A DNA stretch of 64,000 bases from Escherichia coli (GTDB lineage: Bacteria; Pseudomonadota; Gammaproteobacteria; Enterobacterales; Enterobacteriaceae). The DNA is taken from assembly GCF_016026235.1 (NCBI RefSeq), contig NZ_CP065613.1; one strand, given 5' to 3'. Shown here piece by piece: positions 3,602 through 20,756 of the stretch (its first letter is position 1; each line of letters starts with the position of its first letter). The translations under genes and the position numbers were made by a program. A model generated the notes under the pieces. It searched no databases, was not told where the DNA came from, and saw only the letters and a program-made list of their open reading frames with translations.

Positions 3602-5587
3602 TTATGCGCGCTTCAGATAGCGTTTATACCAGCGTTCGAAGGCGACGGCGGGCATCGGTTTGGCAAACAAAAATCCTTGCCGCTCATTGATCCCGTTCTT
3701 GGTTAAAAAAGCATCTTCCTTTGCACTCTCTACACCTTCGGCGATCACCTGAAGATTCAATGCCTGGGCCACAGCGACGATCGCCCGGACCAGTGACTGC
3801 GAGACAGGTTGTTTGTGAATATCTCGAACAAAAACCTGGTCAAGTTTGATGGCATCGATCGGAAAGCGCGCCAGTTGCGAAAGTGAAGAGTAGCCGGTAC
3901 CAAAATCATCCAGATGCACTTGCGCACCTAGTTGGCTAAATTGTTGAATAACAGACAGTGCCAGTTCATCATTCTCAATCAGACAACTCTCTGTCAGTTC
4001 AACATCTATAGGGCAGTATTCAAAATTGAGTTCCTGGAGAACCTGTTTCAGGGCGGTGAAAATGGTTTGATCGGCGAGCTGACGTGCAGAAATATTTACC
4101 GCCACTCGCAGGTTTATGCCTTTATCCCGCCACTTTGCCACCTGGCGTACGACATCGAGAATCACCCAACGGCCTAAAGGCACAATTAGCCCTGACTCTT
4201 CGGCGTAGGAAATGAAGTCCAACGGTGGAATCAACCCACGTTCAGGTGACTGCCAACGTACTAGTGCTTCCAGACTGCGCACTTCGCCACGCCAGGTGAT
4301 TTTCGGTTGATAGTGAATAACCAACTGATCGTTTTCCAGTGCTTTACGCAAGTTGGTATCCAGCCAGAGATATTCAAATACCCGCTGATTCATTTCTGGA
4401 GTAAAAACGCAAAATTGTCCTCGTCCGCCTTCCTTCGCTGTGTACATTGCTGTGTCGGCGTGACGAATAATAGTCGCGCTGTCCGAACCATGTTCGGGAG
4501 AGAGCGAAATACCTACTGAACAGCTGGTATAAACTTCAATTAAACCAATACGAAAGGGGAGGCGTAAGCGGGTCAAAATTCGTGATGCCATTGCTTCCAG
4601 CGCGCTTTGTGAGGTATTGGATGCCAGTACCAGAAACTCATCGCCACCTGGACGCGCCAACACCTGGTCATGTTCGAGACAGCTTAAAATAGCCAATGAC
4701 ACGTCGCGTAATAACTGGTCACCAAACAAATGCCCATAGGCGTCGTTGACCTTTTTAAAATTATCCAAATCAAGATACACAACCCCAACTTTATTGTTAT
4801 CTGCCTGATTAATAGCGTGATCGATTAACTCCTGCATTGCGTTACGATTCGGCAGTCCGGTGATACTGTCGGTATTTGCCAGAATACGCAGTCGCTCCTG
4901 AGCGCGGCGCTCTTCGGTAATGTCGGTACCGGAACAGATTAAAAAAATCTCGTTTTTGCCACTGCCGCTGTGGACAAATTTATTGCGAAACAGAAACAGC
5001 CGCTGGCCTTTACGTGTTGGTATCCACAGTTCGACTTCATATGCATTGCCGCTTCGAAAAAATACACGGTTATTGCGCCTGGATGCCGCAGCTTCACGAC
5101 GGCTCATAAACAGTTTAAACACGCTTTGCCCAATGACGTCGTGTTCTTTCAACCCTGTGTAATCTTCACATAACCGATTGAAGCGTTGGATATTCCCCCG
5201 GCTGTCGAGAATCACTATTGCGGAATGTGCTTCAGAAACTACCTGCTCAGCAAAGGAAAGCCCGTGTGATAAATCACGAGCAACCGCCGGTGTGTCATGC
5301 CATGCAGACGCGTTGCCAGCCCATTCCCGTTTATTGATTTTTCGTCCTACCAGATGCACAGAAAGATCGCTTTCATCGACGGTCAGACTCATCATCAGGC
5401 TGGAGGTGATGACCGTCATTTCCCTGATGCGAGCAGCCTGTTCGGCAGATAACTGCAATGTACGATCAGGTTCTGTGGTTTCGGTGGTAGAAAAGCGCAA
5501 AACATCGCTGCTTTCCGTCAACCGCCAGTATGGATTGTGCGATCCGAGAAAGTTGTACAACGTTGTGGACTCCCTAACGGTTTTCAT
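3602..5587 (-). CDS. pdeR: c-di-GMP phosphodiesterase PdeR (PAS-GGDEF-EAL)
   Basis: 661 aa; degenerate GGDEF region followed by an EAL domain (EVLARW...DDFGTGYSSL). Confidence 0.9.
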   Translation of the reverse strand: MKTVRESTTLYNFLGSHNPYWRLTESSDVLRFSTTETTEPDRTLQLSAEQAARIREMTVITSSLMMSLTVDESDLSVHLVGRKINKREWAGNASAWHDTPAVARDLSHGLSFAEQVVSEAHSAIVILDSRGNIQRFNRLCEDYTGLKEHDVIGQSVFKLFMSRREAAASRRNNRVFFRSGNAYEVELWIPTRKGQRLFLFRNKFVHSGSGKNEIFLICSGTDITEERRAQERLRILANTDSITGLPNRNAMQELIDHAINQADNNKVGVVYLDLDNFKKVNDAYGHLFGDQLLRDVSLAILSCLEHDQVLARPGGDEFLVLASNTSQSALEAMASRILTRLRLPFRIGLIEVYTSCSVGISLSPEHGSDSATIIRHADTAMYTAKEGGRGQFCVFTPEMNQRVFEYLWLDTNLRKALENDQLVIHYQPKITWRGEVRSLEALVRWQSPERGLIPPLDFISYAEESGLIVPLGRWVILDVVRQVAKWRDKGINLRVAVNISARQLADQTIFTALKQVLQELNFEYCPIDVELTESCLIENDELALSVIQQFSQLGAQVHLDDFGTGYSSLSQLARFPIDAIKLDQVFVRDIHKQPVSQSLVRAIVAVAQALNLQVIAEGVESAKEDAFLTKNGINERQGFLFAKPMPAVAFERWYKRYLKRA

Positions 5588-15983: not shown

Positions 15984-16230
15984 AATATTAGGGATTTTAT
16001 GTAAAGAGGCTATCTTACTAATATTTAATGACATTTGCCATTACCGTTTGTGTTCAGGGGTCGTAATGAGGGCCGTGTGGTTGGTCGTTGAACAGGTGGC
16101 GTCGCCATCTGTTCAACATTCGTACCCGTGATTTCTCTATAACTATAACTCACAGAACAACTTAGCGAGGAGCAGAGCGGTACGATCGTGAGAAACCCAT
16201 TAAAGCACGCTGCAGTGCGTGTCATTGTTA

Positions 16231-16262
16231 GCCGGATGCGGCGTGAACGCTTTATCTGGACA
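16231..16262. repeat. REP (repetitive extragenic palindromic) element
   Basis: GCCGGATGCGGCGTGAACGCTTTATCTGG matches the REP consensus; lies downstream of ymjA. Confidence 0.55.
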
Positions 16263-16294
16263 ACGATACTGACCGATCGTCTGCAATTAAATAA

Positions 16295-16540
16295 TTACTC
16301 ATTACCCCATTGATTCAAAAACTCTGCGATCTCATCAATGCGTACGGGATTAATCCCCGCTTCAGCAGCCATTTCATGTTGGGCTTCTTCGCTGATCTCT
16401 TCATTGTTCATCAAACGGGTGAGCAGTAACTGGAAGTAGTGGGCCAGCGGTGTGCGTTCAGCCTCTGCGACAGGCTCTGCGCATTCGGTCGCGTACTCAT
16501 CGGCAATATCAAAATATTTTAGCGGGATATCGTGGTTCAT
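16295..16540 (-). CDS. ymjA: Small acidic protein YmjA (DUF2543)
   Basis: 81 aa [22 protein letters not shown]... Confidence 0.8.
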
Positions 16541-16673
16541 TATTTGCCCCTGGGGTTAATGCGCTAAGCATAAGGGCGGATGATAGCACTCGTGATCCGG
16601 GTCATACATCTTTTTATAGTTAATGGCGCGGCGCATTACCCTCAGGCAGGATAATGCGGCGCGCATCCGACTA

Positions 16674-18059
16674 TTACGTTTCGCTCACCGGCGTTCTGTC
16701 ACCTTCGTACAGCGGCACTTTGCGATAGCGGCGGATCAGATACCACAAATATGCGCCGCCTAACGAAGCCCATACCAGACCCAGCGTCAGCGAGGTGGCT
16801 TCGAGGTTAATCCACAGCACGCCGACCGTCAGCGCGCCAACCAGCGGCATTAATAAATAGTGGAAGTGTTCCTTCCAGCTTTTATTCATTCCTTTGCGCC
16901 GCCAGAAGTGGTTGAACACCGACAGGTTAACGAAGGTAAACGCTACCAACGCGCCGAAGTTAATTAACGCTGTGGCGGTAACTAAATCGAAGAACAGCGC
17001 CGACATCGCGACAATTCCGACCATAATGACGTTCAGTGCCGGAGTCCGCCATTTTGGGTGCACATAGCCAAACACGCGCTCCGGAAACACATTGTCGCGC
17101 CCCATCACATACAGCAGACGTGACACGCTGGCATGTGAGGCCAGGCCAGACGCTAACGTGTTCACAAACGTGGTGCAGAGGAAAATCGACTGGAACAGCT
17201 TACCGCCGACGTAGAGTGCAATTTCAGGCAGTGCGGCGTCCGGGTCTTTAAAGCGGCTGATATCGGGGAAGAACAGCTGCATAAAGAACGACGCCGCGAT
17301 AAAGATAACGCCACCATAGACCGCCGTCAGGAAGATGGCTTTCGGGATCACGCGTGCGGCGTCTGGTGTCTCTTCCGAAAGTGTGGTCACCGCATCGAAA
17401 CCGAGGAACGAGAAACAGACAATCGTCGCCCCGGTAATAATCGGAATCAGATGCGCGTTCTCGCTGATAAACGGCTGAAGTGACCAGACGGTGCCAACGC
17501 CTTCTCCTTTATGCAGTCCCTGAACCACCAGGAAGATAAACACCACCATGATGGAGATTTGCACCAGTACAAACAGGGTATTGAAGTTAGCGACCAGGTT
17601 GACGCTCTTCAGATTCGCGGCGGTTAAAATGGCGACGAAGGTTACCACCCACACCCACGGCGGCACTTCCGGGAAGAGGGCGGAGAGATAGATTTTCGCC
17701 AACAAAACGTTGATCATCGGCAAAAAGAGATAATCCAGCAGTGATGACCAGCCGACCATAAATCCGACGTGCGGGTTAATCGACTTTTGCGCGTAGGTAT
17801 AGGCCGAACCGGCCTCCGGAAACTGGCGAACCAGTTTGCCGTAGCTGATAGCGGTAAACAGCACGCCCGCCAGCGCCAGCAAATAGGACGCCGGGACGTG
17901 ACCGTCGCTAATGCCAGATACAATGCCAAAGGTATCGAACACAGTCATCGGCGTGAGATAGGCCAGACCCATCATTACCACCTGCCACAATTTCAGTGAT
18001 TTTCGCAGACGGGTTTTGCCGGGTTGCGCAGCAATATTCAGTGGTGAATTAATAGCCAT
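16674..18059 (-). CDS. puuP: Putrescine importer PuuP (APC family)
   Basis: ORF 16674..18113; probable start at [12 protein letters not shown]; about 12 transmembrane segments. Confidence 0.9.
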
Positions 18060-18361
18060 AATTGCTGCCTCCCCTGCGTAATAAGGTTTGCGGTCGTGTC
18101 GACCTGAAATCAAACCTGTTTAGCAAGGGAAGCAAAGGGGGCGGAGTCCAGTCAGTCGCAGGAGGGGCGCATACGCAGCCTCCCTCGCCATGCGGGGATT
18201 TAATCATCGGCATCATCTCATTTCCTCGTCACAGTCTTAATCGTTAACGGAAGCCCGTTGCCGCCTGCGCTCCATAACGCGACATCCGGGAAATGTCTGG
18301 ATTACCAGCAAATGTCAGGCCTGGCTCCGCTCAGGCCGATGAAACAACCCCGCAAGGGGTA

Positions 18362-19780
18362 CTATGCGTTTTTCAACATCCACTCAATTTCTGTTTCTGT
18401 GATGAGGCGCTCAAACTGCAACAGCTCATCATTTTTACAGGCGTGAAACACATGGCAAAACCGTTCGCCTAAATAGCGGCGCAGGTGATCATTCTCGATA
18501 AACTCACCCAGGGCATCGCTCTGGCGAATCGGGAAGGGTAAGCCATCCTGTTCCAGCCCGTTGCCTTCGACTTCTTCCTGCAACGGCAGCTCGTTATCAA
18601 GACCGTGCAAAATACCGGCAAAAATGGCTGCCATCACCAGATATGGGTTGGCATCGGCACCCGCCACGCGATATTCCACGCGGTGATTATGGCGATCGCC
18701 GCATGGAATACGCAGGGCGACGGTACGGTTATTATGGCCCCACGACGCCTGCGTCGGTACATACATCCCCGGCTGGAAGCGGCGATACGAGTTCACGTTT
18801 GGTGCCAGCAACGCCATTGATGACGGCATCAGATCGATCATTCCGGCGAGCATTTTTTTCAGCAGCGGCGAATCTTCGCCTTCCGCGTCAGAAAGCACGT
18901 TCTCGCCACGATTATTTTGCATACTGATATGGATATGCATTCCGCTGCCCGCGTGCTCTTCATACGGCTTCGCCATAAAAGTGGCGTGCATCTTATGCTT
19001 TTCTGCCATCAGACGCACCAGGCGTTTTAGTGCCAGCGCATCATCGCAGGCTTCCAGCACGTTATCAGTATGGTAAAGGTTGATTTCAAACTGACCCGGC
19101 GAGGCCTCAGCGACCGCGCCATCTGCCGGAATCAGCTGTAACTGCGCCAGTTCATCAATATCATTGAGCACATCGGCGAAGTGGTTGAGGTTATCAACCG
19201 AGTAAACCTGGCTTTGTGTATTGCGGTCATCGGTGCCGGGCGCGCAGGGCGGCTGCAGATACCCTTCAGCGTCGCGCTGACGATCCAGTAAATAGAACTC
19301 CAGCTCTACCGCTACGACCGGGAACAATCCGCGCTGGCGCAGCTGCTGCCACAGGCGGTTAAGAACGTTCCGCGGCTCAACGTCAAAGGGAGCGCCATCT
19401 TCATCGACCATGGTCAGGAGCATCTGACCGATAAACTCTGGATCGGCGGCAGAAGGGGTTAAGGAACCAAGAACAGGGACACAGGTACGATCCGGCTCAC
19501 CCATTTCCTGACCCAGGCCTGCTTCTTCTACTACGTTGCCCAGAATATCCATTGCAAACACCGAGGCCGGGAAATAACACCCTTTCTCGAGCTTCTTCAG
19601 GCTTGAAACAGGAATACGTTTTCCACGGAAGCAACCATTCAAATCGGTAAGTAAAACATCAACATATTGCGTATTCGGGTAGCGCTCCAGGTAGCGTTTC
19701 ACTTCCTGCGTAAAGGCGCTACCCCGCCTCTCTTCTGACTGCTGAACAAAGTTCTCTACTTCAACGATATTGGTTTCCAT
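18362..19780 (-). CDS. puuA: Gamma-glutamylputrescine synthetase
   Basis: ORF 18362..19858; probable start at METNIVEVENF; glutamine synthetase-like catalytic domain. Confidence 0.9.
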   Translation of the reverse strand: METNIVEVENFVQQSEERRGSAFTQEVKRYLERYPNTQYVDVLLTDLNGCFRGKRIPVSSLKKLEKGCYFPASVFAMDILGNVVEEAGLGQEMGEPDRTCVPVLGSLTPSAADPEFIGQMLLTMVDEDGAPFDVEPRNVLNRLWQQLRQRGLFPVVAVELEFYLLDRQRDAEGYLQPPCAPGTDDRNTQSQVYSVDNLNHFADVLNDIDELAQLQLIPADGAVAEASPGQFEINLYHTDNVLEACDDALALKRLVRLMAEKHKMHATFMAKPYEEHAGSGMHIHISMQNNRGENVLSDAEGEDSPLLKKMLAGMIDLMPSSMALLAPNVNSYRRFQPGMYVPTQASWGHNNRTVALRIPCGDRHNHRVEYRVAGADANPYLVMAAIFAGILHGLDNELPLQEEVEGNGLEQDGLPFPIRQSDALGEFIENDHLRRYLGERFCHVFHACKNDELLQFERLITETEIEWMLKNA

Positions 19781-19916
19781 GATTCTTCGCCTTTGGTTTG
19801 TTTTCCGCTCGTTATCAAAGCGTAAAATATAATGACCACTATTCGAATCTGTATGCAAACTAAATGTTTGTTAAATGTTAAATTGAGTTTGCAAAAATGA
19901 AAACCCACTGCTAGAT

Positions 19917-19936
19917 TGAAAAAATATTGAACATAA
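19917..19936. promoter_or_regulatory. Candidate PuuR operator in the divergent puuA-puuD control region
   Basis: AAAAATATTGAACAT resembles the recalled PuuR motif AAAATATAATGAACA; related AAATGTT repeats lie at 19862-19885. Confidence 0.35.
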
Positions 19937-19991
19937 AGGTCATTTAAACCGCAGTAATGGCGATAATTTAGTCCACTTTGTGAGATTGAGC

Positions 19992-20756
19992 ATGGAAAAT
20001 ATAATGAACAATCCGGTTATCGGTGTCGTAATGTGCAGGAACAGGCTTAAGGGTCATGCGACCCAGACTCTGCAAGAAAAGTACCTGAATGCCATCATCC
20101 ACGCAGGCGGTTTGCCAATTGCGCTGCCACATGCGCTGGCGGAACCGTCCTTACTTGAACAACTTTTGCCGAAACTCGATGGCATTTATCTTCCTGGTAG
20201 TCCCAGCAATGTGCAGCCGCACCTATATGGTGAAAACGGCGATGAGCCTGACGCCGATCCCGGGCGTGATCTTCTGAGCATGGCGTTAATTAATGCCGCA
20301 CTCGAAAGGCGCATCCCCATTTTCGCCATCTGCCGGGGTTTACAGGAACTGGTGGTGGCAACCGGTGGTTCGTTGCATCGCAAGCTGTGCGAACAGCCTG
20401 AATTGCTGGAACATCGGGAAGATCCCGAACTGCCGGTGGAACAGCAATATGCACCGTCGCATGAAGTTCAGGTTGAAGAGGGGGGATTACTGTCTGCGTT
20501 GTTACCTGAATGTAGCAACTTTTGGGTAAACTCTCTGCATGGACAAGGGGCGAAGGTCGTTAGCCCACGGTTGCGTGTTGAAGCTCGCTCGCCGGATGGC
20601 TTAGTTGAGGCGGTTAGCGTCATCAATCATCCTTTTGCGCTGGGCGTACAGTGGCACCCGGAATGGAACAGTAGCGAGTACGCGCTTTCGCGTATATTGT
20701 TCGAGGGCTTTATCACCGCTTGTCAGCACCATATCGCTGAAAAACAGCGACTCTGA
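19992..20756 (+). CDS. puuD: Gamma-glutamyl-gamma-aminobutyrate hydrolase
   Basis: ORF 19980..20756; class I glutamine amidotransferase-like with catalytic Cys in AICRG. Confidence 0.9.
   Translation: MENIMNNPVIGVVMCRNRLKGHATQTLQEKYLNAIIHAGGLPIALPHALAEPSLLEQLLPKLDGIYLPGSPSNVQPHLYGENGDEPDADPGRDLLSMALINAALERRIPIFAICRGLQELVVATGGSLHRKLCEQPELLEHREDPELPVEQQYAPSHEVQVEEGGLLSALLPECSNFWVNSLHGQGAKVVSPRLRVEARSPDGLVEAVSVINHPFALGVQWHPEWNSSEYALSRILFEGFITACQHHIAEKQRL

Follow-up and report, generated by a model that had tools for sequence, protein, structure and literature searches.

In the mgtCBRU operon of Salmonella, mgtQ, an open reading frame (ORF) of 8 codons, lies between mgtC and mgtB, and its translation frees the mgtB ribosome-binding site (RBS) from an inhibitory stem-loop (PMC8092293). 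Here we describe the spacer between puuA and puuP in a 64,000-nucleotide (nt) stretch of Escherichia coli DNA (contig NZ_CP065613.1; hereafter, the window), in which the small ORF ymjE precedes puuP. Among the known systems compared, mgtQ/mgtB is the closest analogue, since in both cases a small ORF inside an operon stands before a transporter gene whose RBS lies in a stem-loop overlapping the small ORF. The two differ in that mgtQ is very short and carries ribosome-destabilizing acidic codons, whereas ymjE has 55 codons (25–72 in relatives) and a conserved N-terminus. In contrast to mgtQ, ymjE also ends 11 nt inside the transporter gene, is preceded by a separate structure of 140 nt, and occurs in several families of Enterobacterales. 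We hold, with a probability of roughly 0.6, that the puuA–puuP spacer is a post-transcriptional control module inside a puuA–ymjE–puuP mRNA. ymjE itself is already known, and we file the module as a putative intra-operon translational gate that depends on an upstream ORF (uORF) and has a structured leader.

Two other kinds of system share parts of this arrangement. The B12 riboswitch-uORF of Mycobacterium tuberculosis has a like order of structured RNA, uORF, and regulated gene, according to the accessible part of its report (PMC11260477). Compared with what that part describes, the puu element has no Rfam riboswitch match, occupies one locus per genome, and is located within an operon, not in a 5′ untranslated region. 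SpeFL (ornithine; speF–potE) and TnaC are metabolite-sensing leader peptides. ymjE resembles them as a short ORF for a conserved peptide that lies upstream of a gene for polyamine or amino acid transport or catabolism and is followed by a C-rich region; on the other hand, it shows no sequence similarity to them, is longer, and has its conserved part at the N-terminus rather than at the stop codon. The Pfam family YmjE (PF23692) represents the same gene, for which it has been published that the protein is made and that the gene adjoins puuP (PMC6001520). As far as the literature was searched, the wider uORF family, the hairpin masking the Shine-Dalgarno (SD) sequence of puuP, and the upstream RNA are undescribed and are new relative to the PF23692 description, and no paper connects puuP with translational coupling or with a riboswitch, a leader peptide, or a uORF.

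puuA (18362–19780; stop codon TAG at 18362–18364) and puuP (16674–18059; start codon AUG at 18057–18059) are both on the minus strand, as are all features below unless stated otherwise, and are separated by 302 nt (18060–18361). A preliminary description of the window had likewise placed them in the same orientation about 300 bp apart, and had called the spacer GC-rich. Its GC content (ca. 0.54–0.56) bears this out and equals that of the flanking coding DNA, whereas that of the puuA–puuD intergenic region is far lower (0.29–0.37). The spacer is not non-coding, as RefSeq annotates ymjE inside it, and it can be divided into four parts: a terminator-like hairpin, a structured RNA of ca. 140 nt, ymjE, and a hairpin that pairs with the puuP SD. 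It is 100% identical in many RefSeq E. coli chromosomes, and megablast and blastn found it as a single copy per genome. Both the spacer and the 5′ part of puuP are absent from 1053 of 5426 complete E. coli genomes; therefore, the locus is missing in ca. 19% of strains. In current usage, puuAP–ymjE is treated as one operon (bioRxiv 10.1101/2024.06.27.601034).

RefSeq lists a YmjE family protein of 54 amino acids (aa) at 18049–18213, a reading frame that shares its last 11 nt with the beginning of puuP. Counted from the first AUG, the uORF has 55 codons (18049–18216) and matches the PF23692 profile with 147.6 bits (cutoff, 27); its stop codon UAA (18051–18049) is 11 nt inside puuP, 8 nt past the puuP AUG. 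YmjE synthesis was shown by chromosomal sequential peptide affinity (SPA) tagging, and the gene was positive in a tetracycline ribosome-profiling screen (VanOrsdel et al. 2018, PMC6001520). A PuuA scan of species-representative genomes yielded 80 loci, and the Enterobacteriaceae loci in which puuP follows puuA numbered 40 (Escherichia, Pseudocitrobacter, Klebsiella, Raoultella, Enterobacter, Lelliottia, Huaxiibacter, Citrobacter, Cedecea, Buttiauxella, Trabulsiella, and Pluralibacter). All 40 have a spacer of 266–426 nt with coding-like GC content, and all 40 contain a uORF of 55–70 codons ending exactly 11 nt inside puuP. Over 31 loci, the ymjE frame contained no stop in 1,949 codons, compared with 102 and 71 stops in the other two frames. 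The uORFs of these loci have nine different lengths, all in frame, and their middle part cannot be aligned between genera; since the frame is open nevertheless, it has been kept through many insertions and deletions. Additionally, the stop codon UAA never varies, even though a change of its first base would be synonymous in puuP codon 3. Judged from these alignments, the uORF is selected to stay open.

Beyond the Enterobacteriaceae set, the uORF encodes 60 and 62 aa in Franconibacter, 72 aa in Hafnia, and 61–65 aa in Serratia, and the uORF/puuP junction AUGNNNAUUAA/G is common to these three genera. The uORFs of Erwinia are shorter (25 and 41 aa). An in-frame fusion of the uORF with puuP in Erwinia sp. 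198 was considered and rejected, because translation gives a separate uORF of 25 codons. The Pfam YmjE model places only part of this wider uORF family above its cutoff; most members from Klebsiella, Citrobacter, Cedecea, Hafnia, and Serratia fall below it. A record titled Chryseobacterium sp. 18061 (locus L072) carries a puuA–uORF–puuP arrangement of the Enterobacteriaceae type with a PuuA of 90% identity, and is probably a contamination or a mislabelled assembly.

In the predicted fold, the puuP SD GGGGAGG (18074–18068) is paired with an anti-SD CUUCCC (18132–18127) inside ymjE. The resulting hairpin (18065–18135) has a folding energy of −37.9 kcal/mol (z = −5.53), which none of 200 shuffles equalled. 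The consensus fold of 31 spacers comprises the anti-SD/SD helix and an inner helix formed by CAGGUUUG and CAAACCUG. Compensatory changes were found in 6 of the 12 pairs, including a change from C-G to U-A within the SD/anti-SD helix in 8 sequences. The hairpin pairs 95% of the alignment cells, compared with 35–66% when the partners are slid, and its covariation score was 0.273 versus 0.165, a value reached by none of 500 shuffles. In each of 10 further species, the puuP SD was paired in the minimum-free-energy fold (z from −1.2 to −5.5), and the pairing holds in Franconibacter, Hafnia, and Serratia despite a different sequence in the hairpin interior. A ribosome on ymjE must traverse this hairpin and terminates 8 nt beyond the puuP AUG; from this geometry we infer translational coupling, which would operate by unmasking or re-initiation. 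The strongest signals of the spacer are translational, namely the conserved translated uORF and the conserved hairpin on the puuP SD.

The first 13 codons of ymjE (MMQMFKYP(H/Q)GEGG in most genera) vary chiefly at third positions, with summed entropies of 2.65, 5.59, and 11.87 at the first, second, and third codon positions, respectively. Therefore, the N-terminal peptide is constrained at the amino acid level, which hints at an extra role, exerted either by the nascent peptide or by YmjE as a free small protein. Small proteins encoded beside transporter genes often regulate them, and YmjE, which is detectable and carries this constraint, could be a free-standing protein that modulates, for instance, PuuP or PuuA, the RNA features being ordinary expression signals. 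However, the protein has no hydrophobic segment, its middle cannot be aligned between genera, its length ranges from 25 to 72 codons, the SD hairpin together with the puuP RBS determines its C-terminal half, and the ORF is missing in Pantoea sp. BAV 3049. The E. coli YmjE alleles P0008 and P0009 also speak against it; the variant comparison, made on protein sequences only, shows in them a frame that is apparently shifted locally and then restored (ATHGLRPLCLPLLNRF), as would suit selection acting on the openness of the frame and not on the peptide sequence. We regard this free-standing-protein reading as quite unlikely.

The nascent peptide could also act on transcription. The interior of ymjE contains a variable, C-rich and G-poor segment (18136–18177), a possible Rho loading region if ymjE is untranslated. 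When ymjE is not translated, or when its ribosome stalls early, this interior could load Rho and transcription would stop before or within puuP; ymjE would then be a leader peptide controlling transcription, like tnaC or speFL, and could act together with SD masking. In favor of such attenuation, the uORF interior contains more C (27–39%) than G (18–28%) in 31 of 31 loci, and the conserved N-terminal peptide together with the motif SRS(K/E)YGP, found in many lineages including Citrobacter, Franconibacter, Hafnia, and Serratia, suggests a nascent-peptide function. On the other hand, the bias in composition is moderate, the SRSKYGP motif has been lost from the E. coli peptide, and the accessible parts of the tables searched list no bicyclomycin-sensitive 3′ end for puuP or ymjE on the gene strand. 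We consider Rho-dependent attenuation unlikely.

Upstream of the coding part of ymjE, the RNAalifold consensus gives a conserved structured leader RNA of ca. 140 nt (18207–18346; model R1), with hairpins P1–P3 and a tentative long-range helix P0; the 3′ end of the element carries the ymjE SD and start codons. P1 (18318–18337), GGCCUG-AGCGGAGC-CAGGCC, has the invariant loop CGGAG, and all four of its stem pairs show compensatory changes (GC, AU, UA, and CG). It corresponds to the second hairpin, GGCCTGAGCGGAGCCAGGCC at 18337–18318, of the preliminary description, according to which the spacer may hold a processing site; P1 is a stem of the larger conserved RNA and no stand-alone site of that kind. 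P2 (18297–18308), CUGG-UAAU-CCAG, has one pair that alternates between U-A, A-U, and C-G (14, 14, and 4 sequences, respectively), its remaining pairs being invariant. P3 (18254–18290) consists of an outer stem CCCG/CGGG, an inner stem GUCGC/GCGGC, and a loop with an invariant GGA, and shows little variation and few compensatory changes. P0 would close the element by pairing GCAUCAU (18345–18340) with the ymjE start codons AUGAUGC (18215–18210). In the ymjE SD region GAGGAAAUG (18219–18227), CGAGG is invariant in 30 sequences, 7 nt 5′ of the first AUG. The ymjE SD GGAAAUG (18225–18219) is complementary to CAUUUCC (18289–18295), which overlaps the outer stem of P3. This possible alternative anti-SD pairing appears in the minimum-free-energy fold of E. 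coli and pairs 95% of the alignment cells with almost no variation; the alignment is compatible with it.

The R1 element is the best-conserved segment of the spacer and can be aligned across genera with 81% mean column identity. In the MAFFT alignment, the model pairs 98% of the cells, compared with 24–39% with slid partners, and its covariation score of 0.181 versus 0.102 was reached by none of 500 shuffles. When the homologues of Franconibacter, Pantoea, and Erwinia were added, 11 of 24 pairs were compensatory, in an alignment that was fitted to the model and leans towards the structure. Among ten genera, the mean pairwise identity of the element was 0.758, compared with 0.584 for the third codon positions of puuA. 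Within E. coli, its 140 nt are at least 99% identical in 4334 of the 4373 genomes carrying it, and the first 660 nt of puuP are at least 99% identical to the window in 319 genomes only. The covariance model of R1 scores 148.7 bits at this locus, and weaker homologues were detected in Franconibacter, Pantoea sp. BAV 3049, Erwinia sp. 198, and Pluralibacter gergoviae. No second copy turned up in the window, at other sites of E. coli genomes, or in the Serratia and Rahnella loci, and a scan of 16000–20500 against Rfam 15 at E ≤ 10 gave no match inside the spacer. In Pantoea sp. BAV 3049, the element lies directly 5′ of the puuP SD without a uORF, so that R1 seems tied to the control of whichever initiation site comes next. 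The stems vary while the loops are fixed, a pattern that suits a structured RNA better than a palindromic DNA operator. As read from the alignments, P1 and P2 give the strongest support to a multi-stem covarying structure, whereas support from P0 and P3 is weak.

Variants of the leader were observed in two groups. In Pluralibacter gergoviae (locus L037, 4920–5011), P1 and P2 are lost and the spacer has just 266 nt; the species retains an SD and start of the ymjE type, as well as the uORF and the hairpin that masks the puuP SD. The Serratia loci L044–L052 and L059 (ca. 4920–5045) have a different conserved leader 3′ of puuA, with a hairpin GGCGUACAGGACGCC that carries GGA in its loop, lies 13 nt 5′ of an SD GAGGAA, and is undetected by model R1. 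In Serratia loci with short spacers, this leader is directly 5′ of puuP, and in those with long spacers (L045, L047, L053, and L055) it is 5′ of the uORF of 61–65 codons.

The preliminary description regarded the spacer as structured, and the covarying stems of the comparative data uphold this, whereas folding of the whole spacer as a single sequence gave a z of only −2.0. This modest value speaks for an account in which nothing here is functional and the hairpins arose by chance in a GC-rich remnant or in a repeat of the REP type (REP, repetitive extragenic palindromic). The single-copy status of the spacer, the lack of a REP or naRNA match in the Rfam scan of it, the conservation, the covariation, and the open-frame statistics all contradict such an account, to which we give almost no credence. 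A REP or bacterial interspersed mosaic element (BIME) repeat was rejected as an identity for the spacer, because the sequence is single-copy in every genome and no naRNA/REP family of Rfam matches it. The spacer is a real, selected feature.

As for what the upstream element may sense, GGA is kept in the P1 loop, the P3 loop, and the ymjE SD, also in the diverged homologues of Franconibacter, Pantoea, and Erwinia. CsrA represses leaders such as those of glgC and cstA. The puu leader resembles them in that its GGA triplets at 18328 (P1 loop), 18273 (P3 loop), and 18225 (SD) are ca. 50 nt apart, but a GGA inside an SD is trivial, and no crosslinking and immunoprecipitation (CLIP) peak for puuA is given in the accessible part of the CsrA table of Potts 2017. 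According to the accessible part of the same dataset, puuA ribosome footprints were up by 0.84 log2 in a csrA mutant. The invariant GGA loops and SD make CsrA a reasonable lead as a candidate partner of the sensor. It is also conceivable, but improbable in our judgment, that the 140-nt element, possibly with the N-terminal peptide of YmjE, directly senses putrescine or another polyamine and thereby gates PuuP translation.

The known regulation of the puu genes is transcriptional and acts at the puuA–puuD region through PuuR, ArcA, FNR, sigma-S, and sigma-54. The 140-nt element might correspondingly be promoter or operator DNA for a separate ymjE–puuP transcript, dependent on PuuR or on sigma-54 with NtrC or AtoC, and an internal promoter was among the proposals of the preliminary description. 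For the PuuR box, we used a consensus that we take to be AAAATATAATGAACA. An operator in the spacer was rejected, since this consensus recovered the three sites expected for the puuA–puuD region but had no match in the spacer. The three matches in and around that region (0–2 mismatches) are at 19824–19838, 19919–19933, and 19996–20010 on the plus strand, and the whole window contains 7 matches of the assumed consensus compared with 2.2 expected. A sigma-70 promoter scan found no site on the gene strand of the spacer. The sole sigma-54-like match, AGGCCTGACATTTGCT at 18322–18307, keeps GG-N10-GC with three mismatches to TGGCAC-N5-TTGCW, and RegulonDB once listed puuP among the sigma-54-related promoters, with an AtoC chromatin immunoprecipitation (ChIP) signal also claimed (PMC3118216). 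These observations favor an internal promoter, but matches of this quality number 99 in the window, compared with 127 expected by chance, the distance from GG to GC shifts by 0–2 nt between genera, and GG is lost in Citrobacter and Cedecea. In the accessible part of the sigma-54 ChIP-seq supplements, there is no site for puuP or ymjA, and the only site at the puu locus is inside puuD and faces puuA; a second sigma-54 paper mentions no puu gene of interest. A sigma-54 promoter in the spacer was rejected because of the weak match, the unconserved spacing, and the single puuD site in these supplements.

The AtoC binding site reported for puuP, GCCATGCGGGGATTTAATCA (18189–18208, plus strand; PMC3118216), is the reverse complement of ymjE codons 2–8, so that it coincides with the conserved N-terminal coding block. 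It was not adopted as an operator, being downstream of any candidate promoter and having been detected with over-expressed AtoC. In the 5′ part of puuD, AGGTACTTTTCTTGCA (20071–20086) points to puuA and is contained in the motif CAGGTACTTTTCTTGCAG, classified as intragenic-antisense in puuD in the accessible part of the sigma-54 ChIP-seq data of Bonocora et al. 2015; this puuD-internal site may be the sigma-54 promoter that databases have attached to puuA/puuP. Stems that covary around invariant loops are the reverse of a palindromic protein-binding site, and a study that weighed the idea of a separate puuP promoter came to regard puuAP as an operon by its behavior (PMC8674398). An internal promoter thus finds no support at this locus, and we consider it very unlikely.

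Directly 3′ of the puuA stop, the preliminary description had noted a first hairpin, CCCCTTGCGGGG at 18359–18348, which is present, and stated that no U-tract follows. The latter is inaccurate, because the hairpin is followed by TGTTTCATCG and was flagged in a terminator scan. The terminator-like unit (18337–18360) is composed of the hairpin ACCCCUUGCGGGGU (18360–18347), with a stem of 5 pairs, 4 of them G-C, and a loop of 4 nt, and the U-rich tail UGUUUCAUCG (18346–18337), which has 5 U in 8 positions and is interrupted. The scan found 2 sites compared with 0.5 ± 0.7 in shuffles. A short GC hairpin 2–8 nt past the puuA stop recurs in Escherichia, Klebsiella, Enterobacter, Raoultella, and Lelliottia, and the quality of its U-tail varies; in some species REP-like hairpins take its place. 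Within the spacer, conservation is lowest in this segment.

Transcript-level decoupling, in which this hairpin acts as a partial terminator, processing site, or stabilizing site and, with most transcripts ending 3′ of puuA, leaves less puuP mRNA, would account for the 5-bp GC hairpin with UGUUUCAU after it, which the terminator scan picked out, and for its recurrence past the puuA stop in several genera, sometimes in REP-like form. However, the stem is short, the U-tract is interrupted, several genera have no U-tail, and the segment is poorly conserved. The accessible parts of the Term-seq tables give no 3′ end for the spacer strand, under conditions in which the operon is poorly expressed. 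Moreover, decoupling at the transcript level leaves the 140-nt element, the uORF, and the SD hairpin unexplained. We regard it as possible, though doubtful, as the main explanation. It could coexist with the translational model, and a weak terminator or 3′-protective role for the puuA hairpin is plausible and compatible with that model. The partial terminator of the preliminary description may to this extent be real, whereas the strongest signals of the spacer are not of this kind.

Two side observations concern REP-like sequences. The Enterobacter-like loci L024 and L025 have REP-like palindromes, e.g., GCCCGGCCTACGG...TGTAGGCCCGGTAAGCG, in the first ca. 90 nt past the puuA stop, before the conserved element; these insertions mark the segment 3′ of puuA as a tolerant, unconstrained part of the spacer. 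Outside the spacer, a weak Rfam match to the REP-derived naRNA4 (16194–16261; 19.5 bits, E = 3.4) lies 3′ of ymjA and probably corresponds to REP111, an element linked to puuA/puuP in a transcriptome paper.

Under the translational model, puuA, ymjE, and puuP would be on one mRNA, and the puuP SD would be locked in a long, stable hairpin wholly within the ymjE frame. Ribosomes on ymjE would melt the hairpin and deliver ribosomes to the puuP AUG by unmasking, re-initiation, or both. Because these ribosomes would melt the hairpin and terminate near the puuP AUG, PuuP would be made only upon ymjE translation. Initiation on ymjE would in turn be set by the three-hairpin RNA of ca. 140 nt upstream, the likely sensor, which could respond to a bound protein such as CsrA or to a small cation such as a polyamine. 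The short hairpin 3′ of puuA could be an additional weak terminator or 3′ stabilizer. What the analysis shows is the ORF, the predicted structures, their conservation, and their covariation, to which the literature adds that YmjE is made. Dependence of puuP translation on that of ymjE, regulation of ymjE initiation by the upstream element, and the nature of what the element senses are deduced from the arrangement.

Several points weigh against this model. YmjE was among the least abundant tagged small proteins in stationary phase in lysogeny broth (bioRxiv 10.1101/511675), and the conserved N-terminal amino acids of YmjE are unneeded for the simple melting of a hairpin. The R1 element of E. 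coli, taken alone, has no folding advantage over shuffles (z = −1.3). P0 and P3 hardly vary, which leaves their pairing unproven, and P0 is broken in the diverged homologues. The preliminary description had proposed that the spacer decouples expression of the transporter from that of the synthetase. This general idea is supported, and both hairpins picked there are conserved features; as a whole, its observation was partly confirmed and its interpretation partly supported.

PuuP is reportedly a high-capacity putrescine importer that is not feedback-inhibited; if so, PuuP synthesis would need tight control. A translational gate before puuP would add a post-transcriptional layer to the transcriptional regulation of the puu genes. 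YmjE, so far an orphan small protein, would thereby gain a testable role, and the E. coli catalogue would be enlarged by a structured RNA that lacks an Rfam family. The gate would also be a second, far more widespread case of an intra-operon uORF that unmasks the RBS of a transporter gene. Binding of polyamines by the sensor would connect putrescine uptake with polyamine homeostasis, and binding of CsrA would connect it with the carbon-storage network. We know of no natural polyamine-responsive element of this kind, and if polyamine sensing were true, the spacer would hold a natural polyamine-responsive riboswitch or leader of Enterobacterales that has gone unnoticed in a well-studied E. coli operon.

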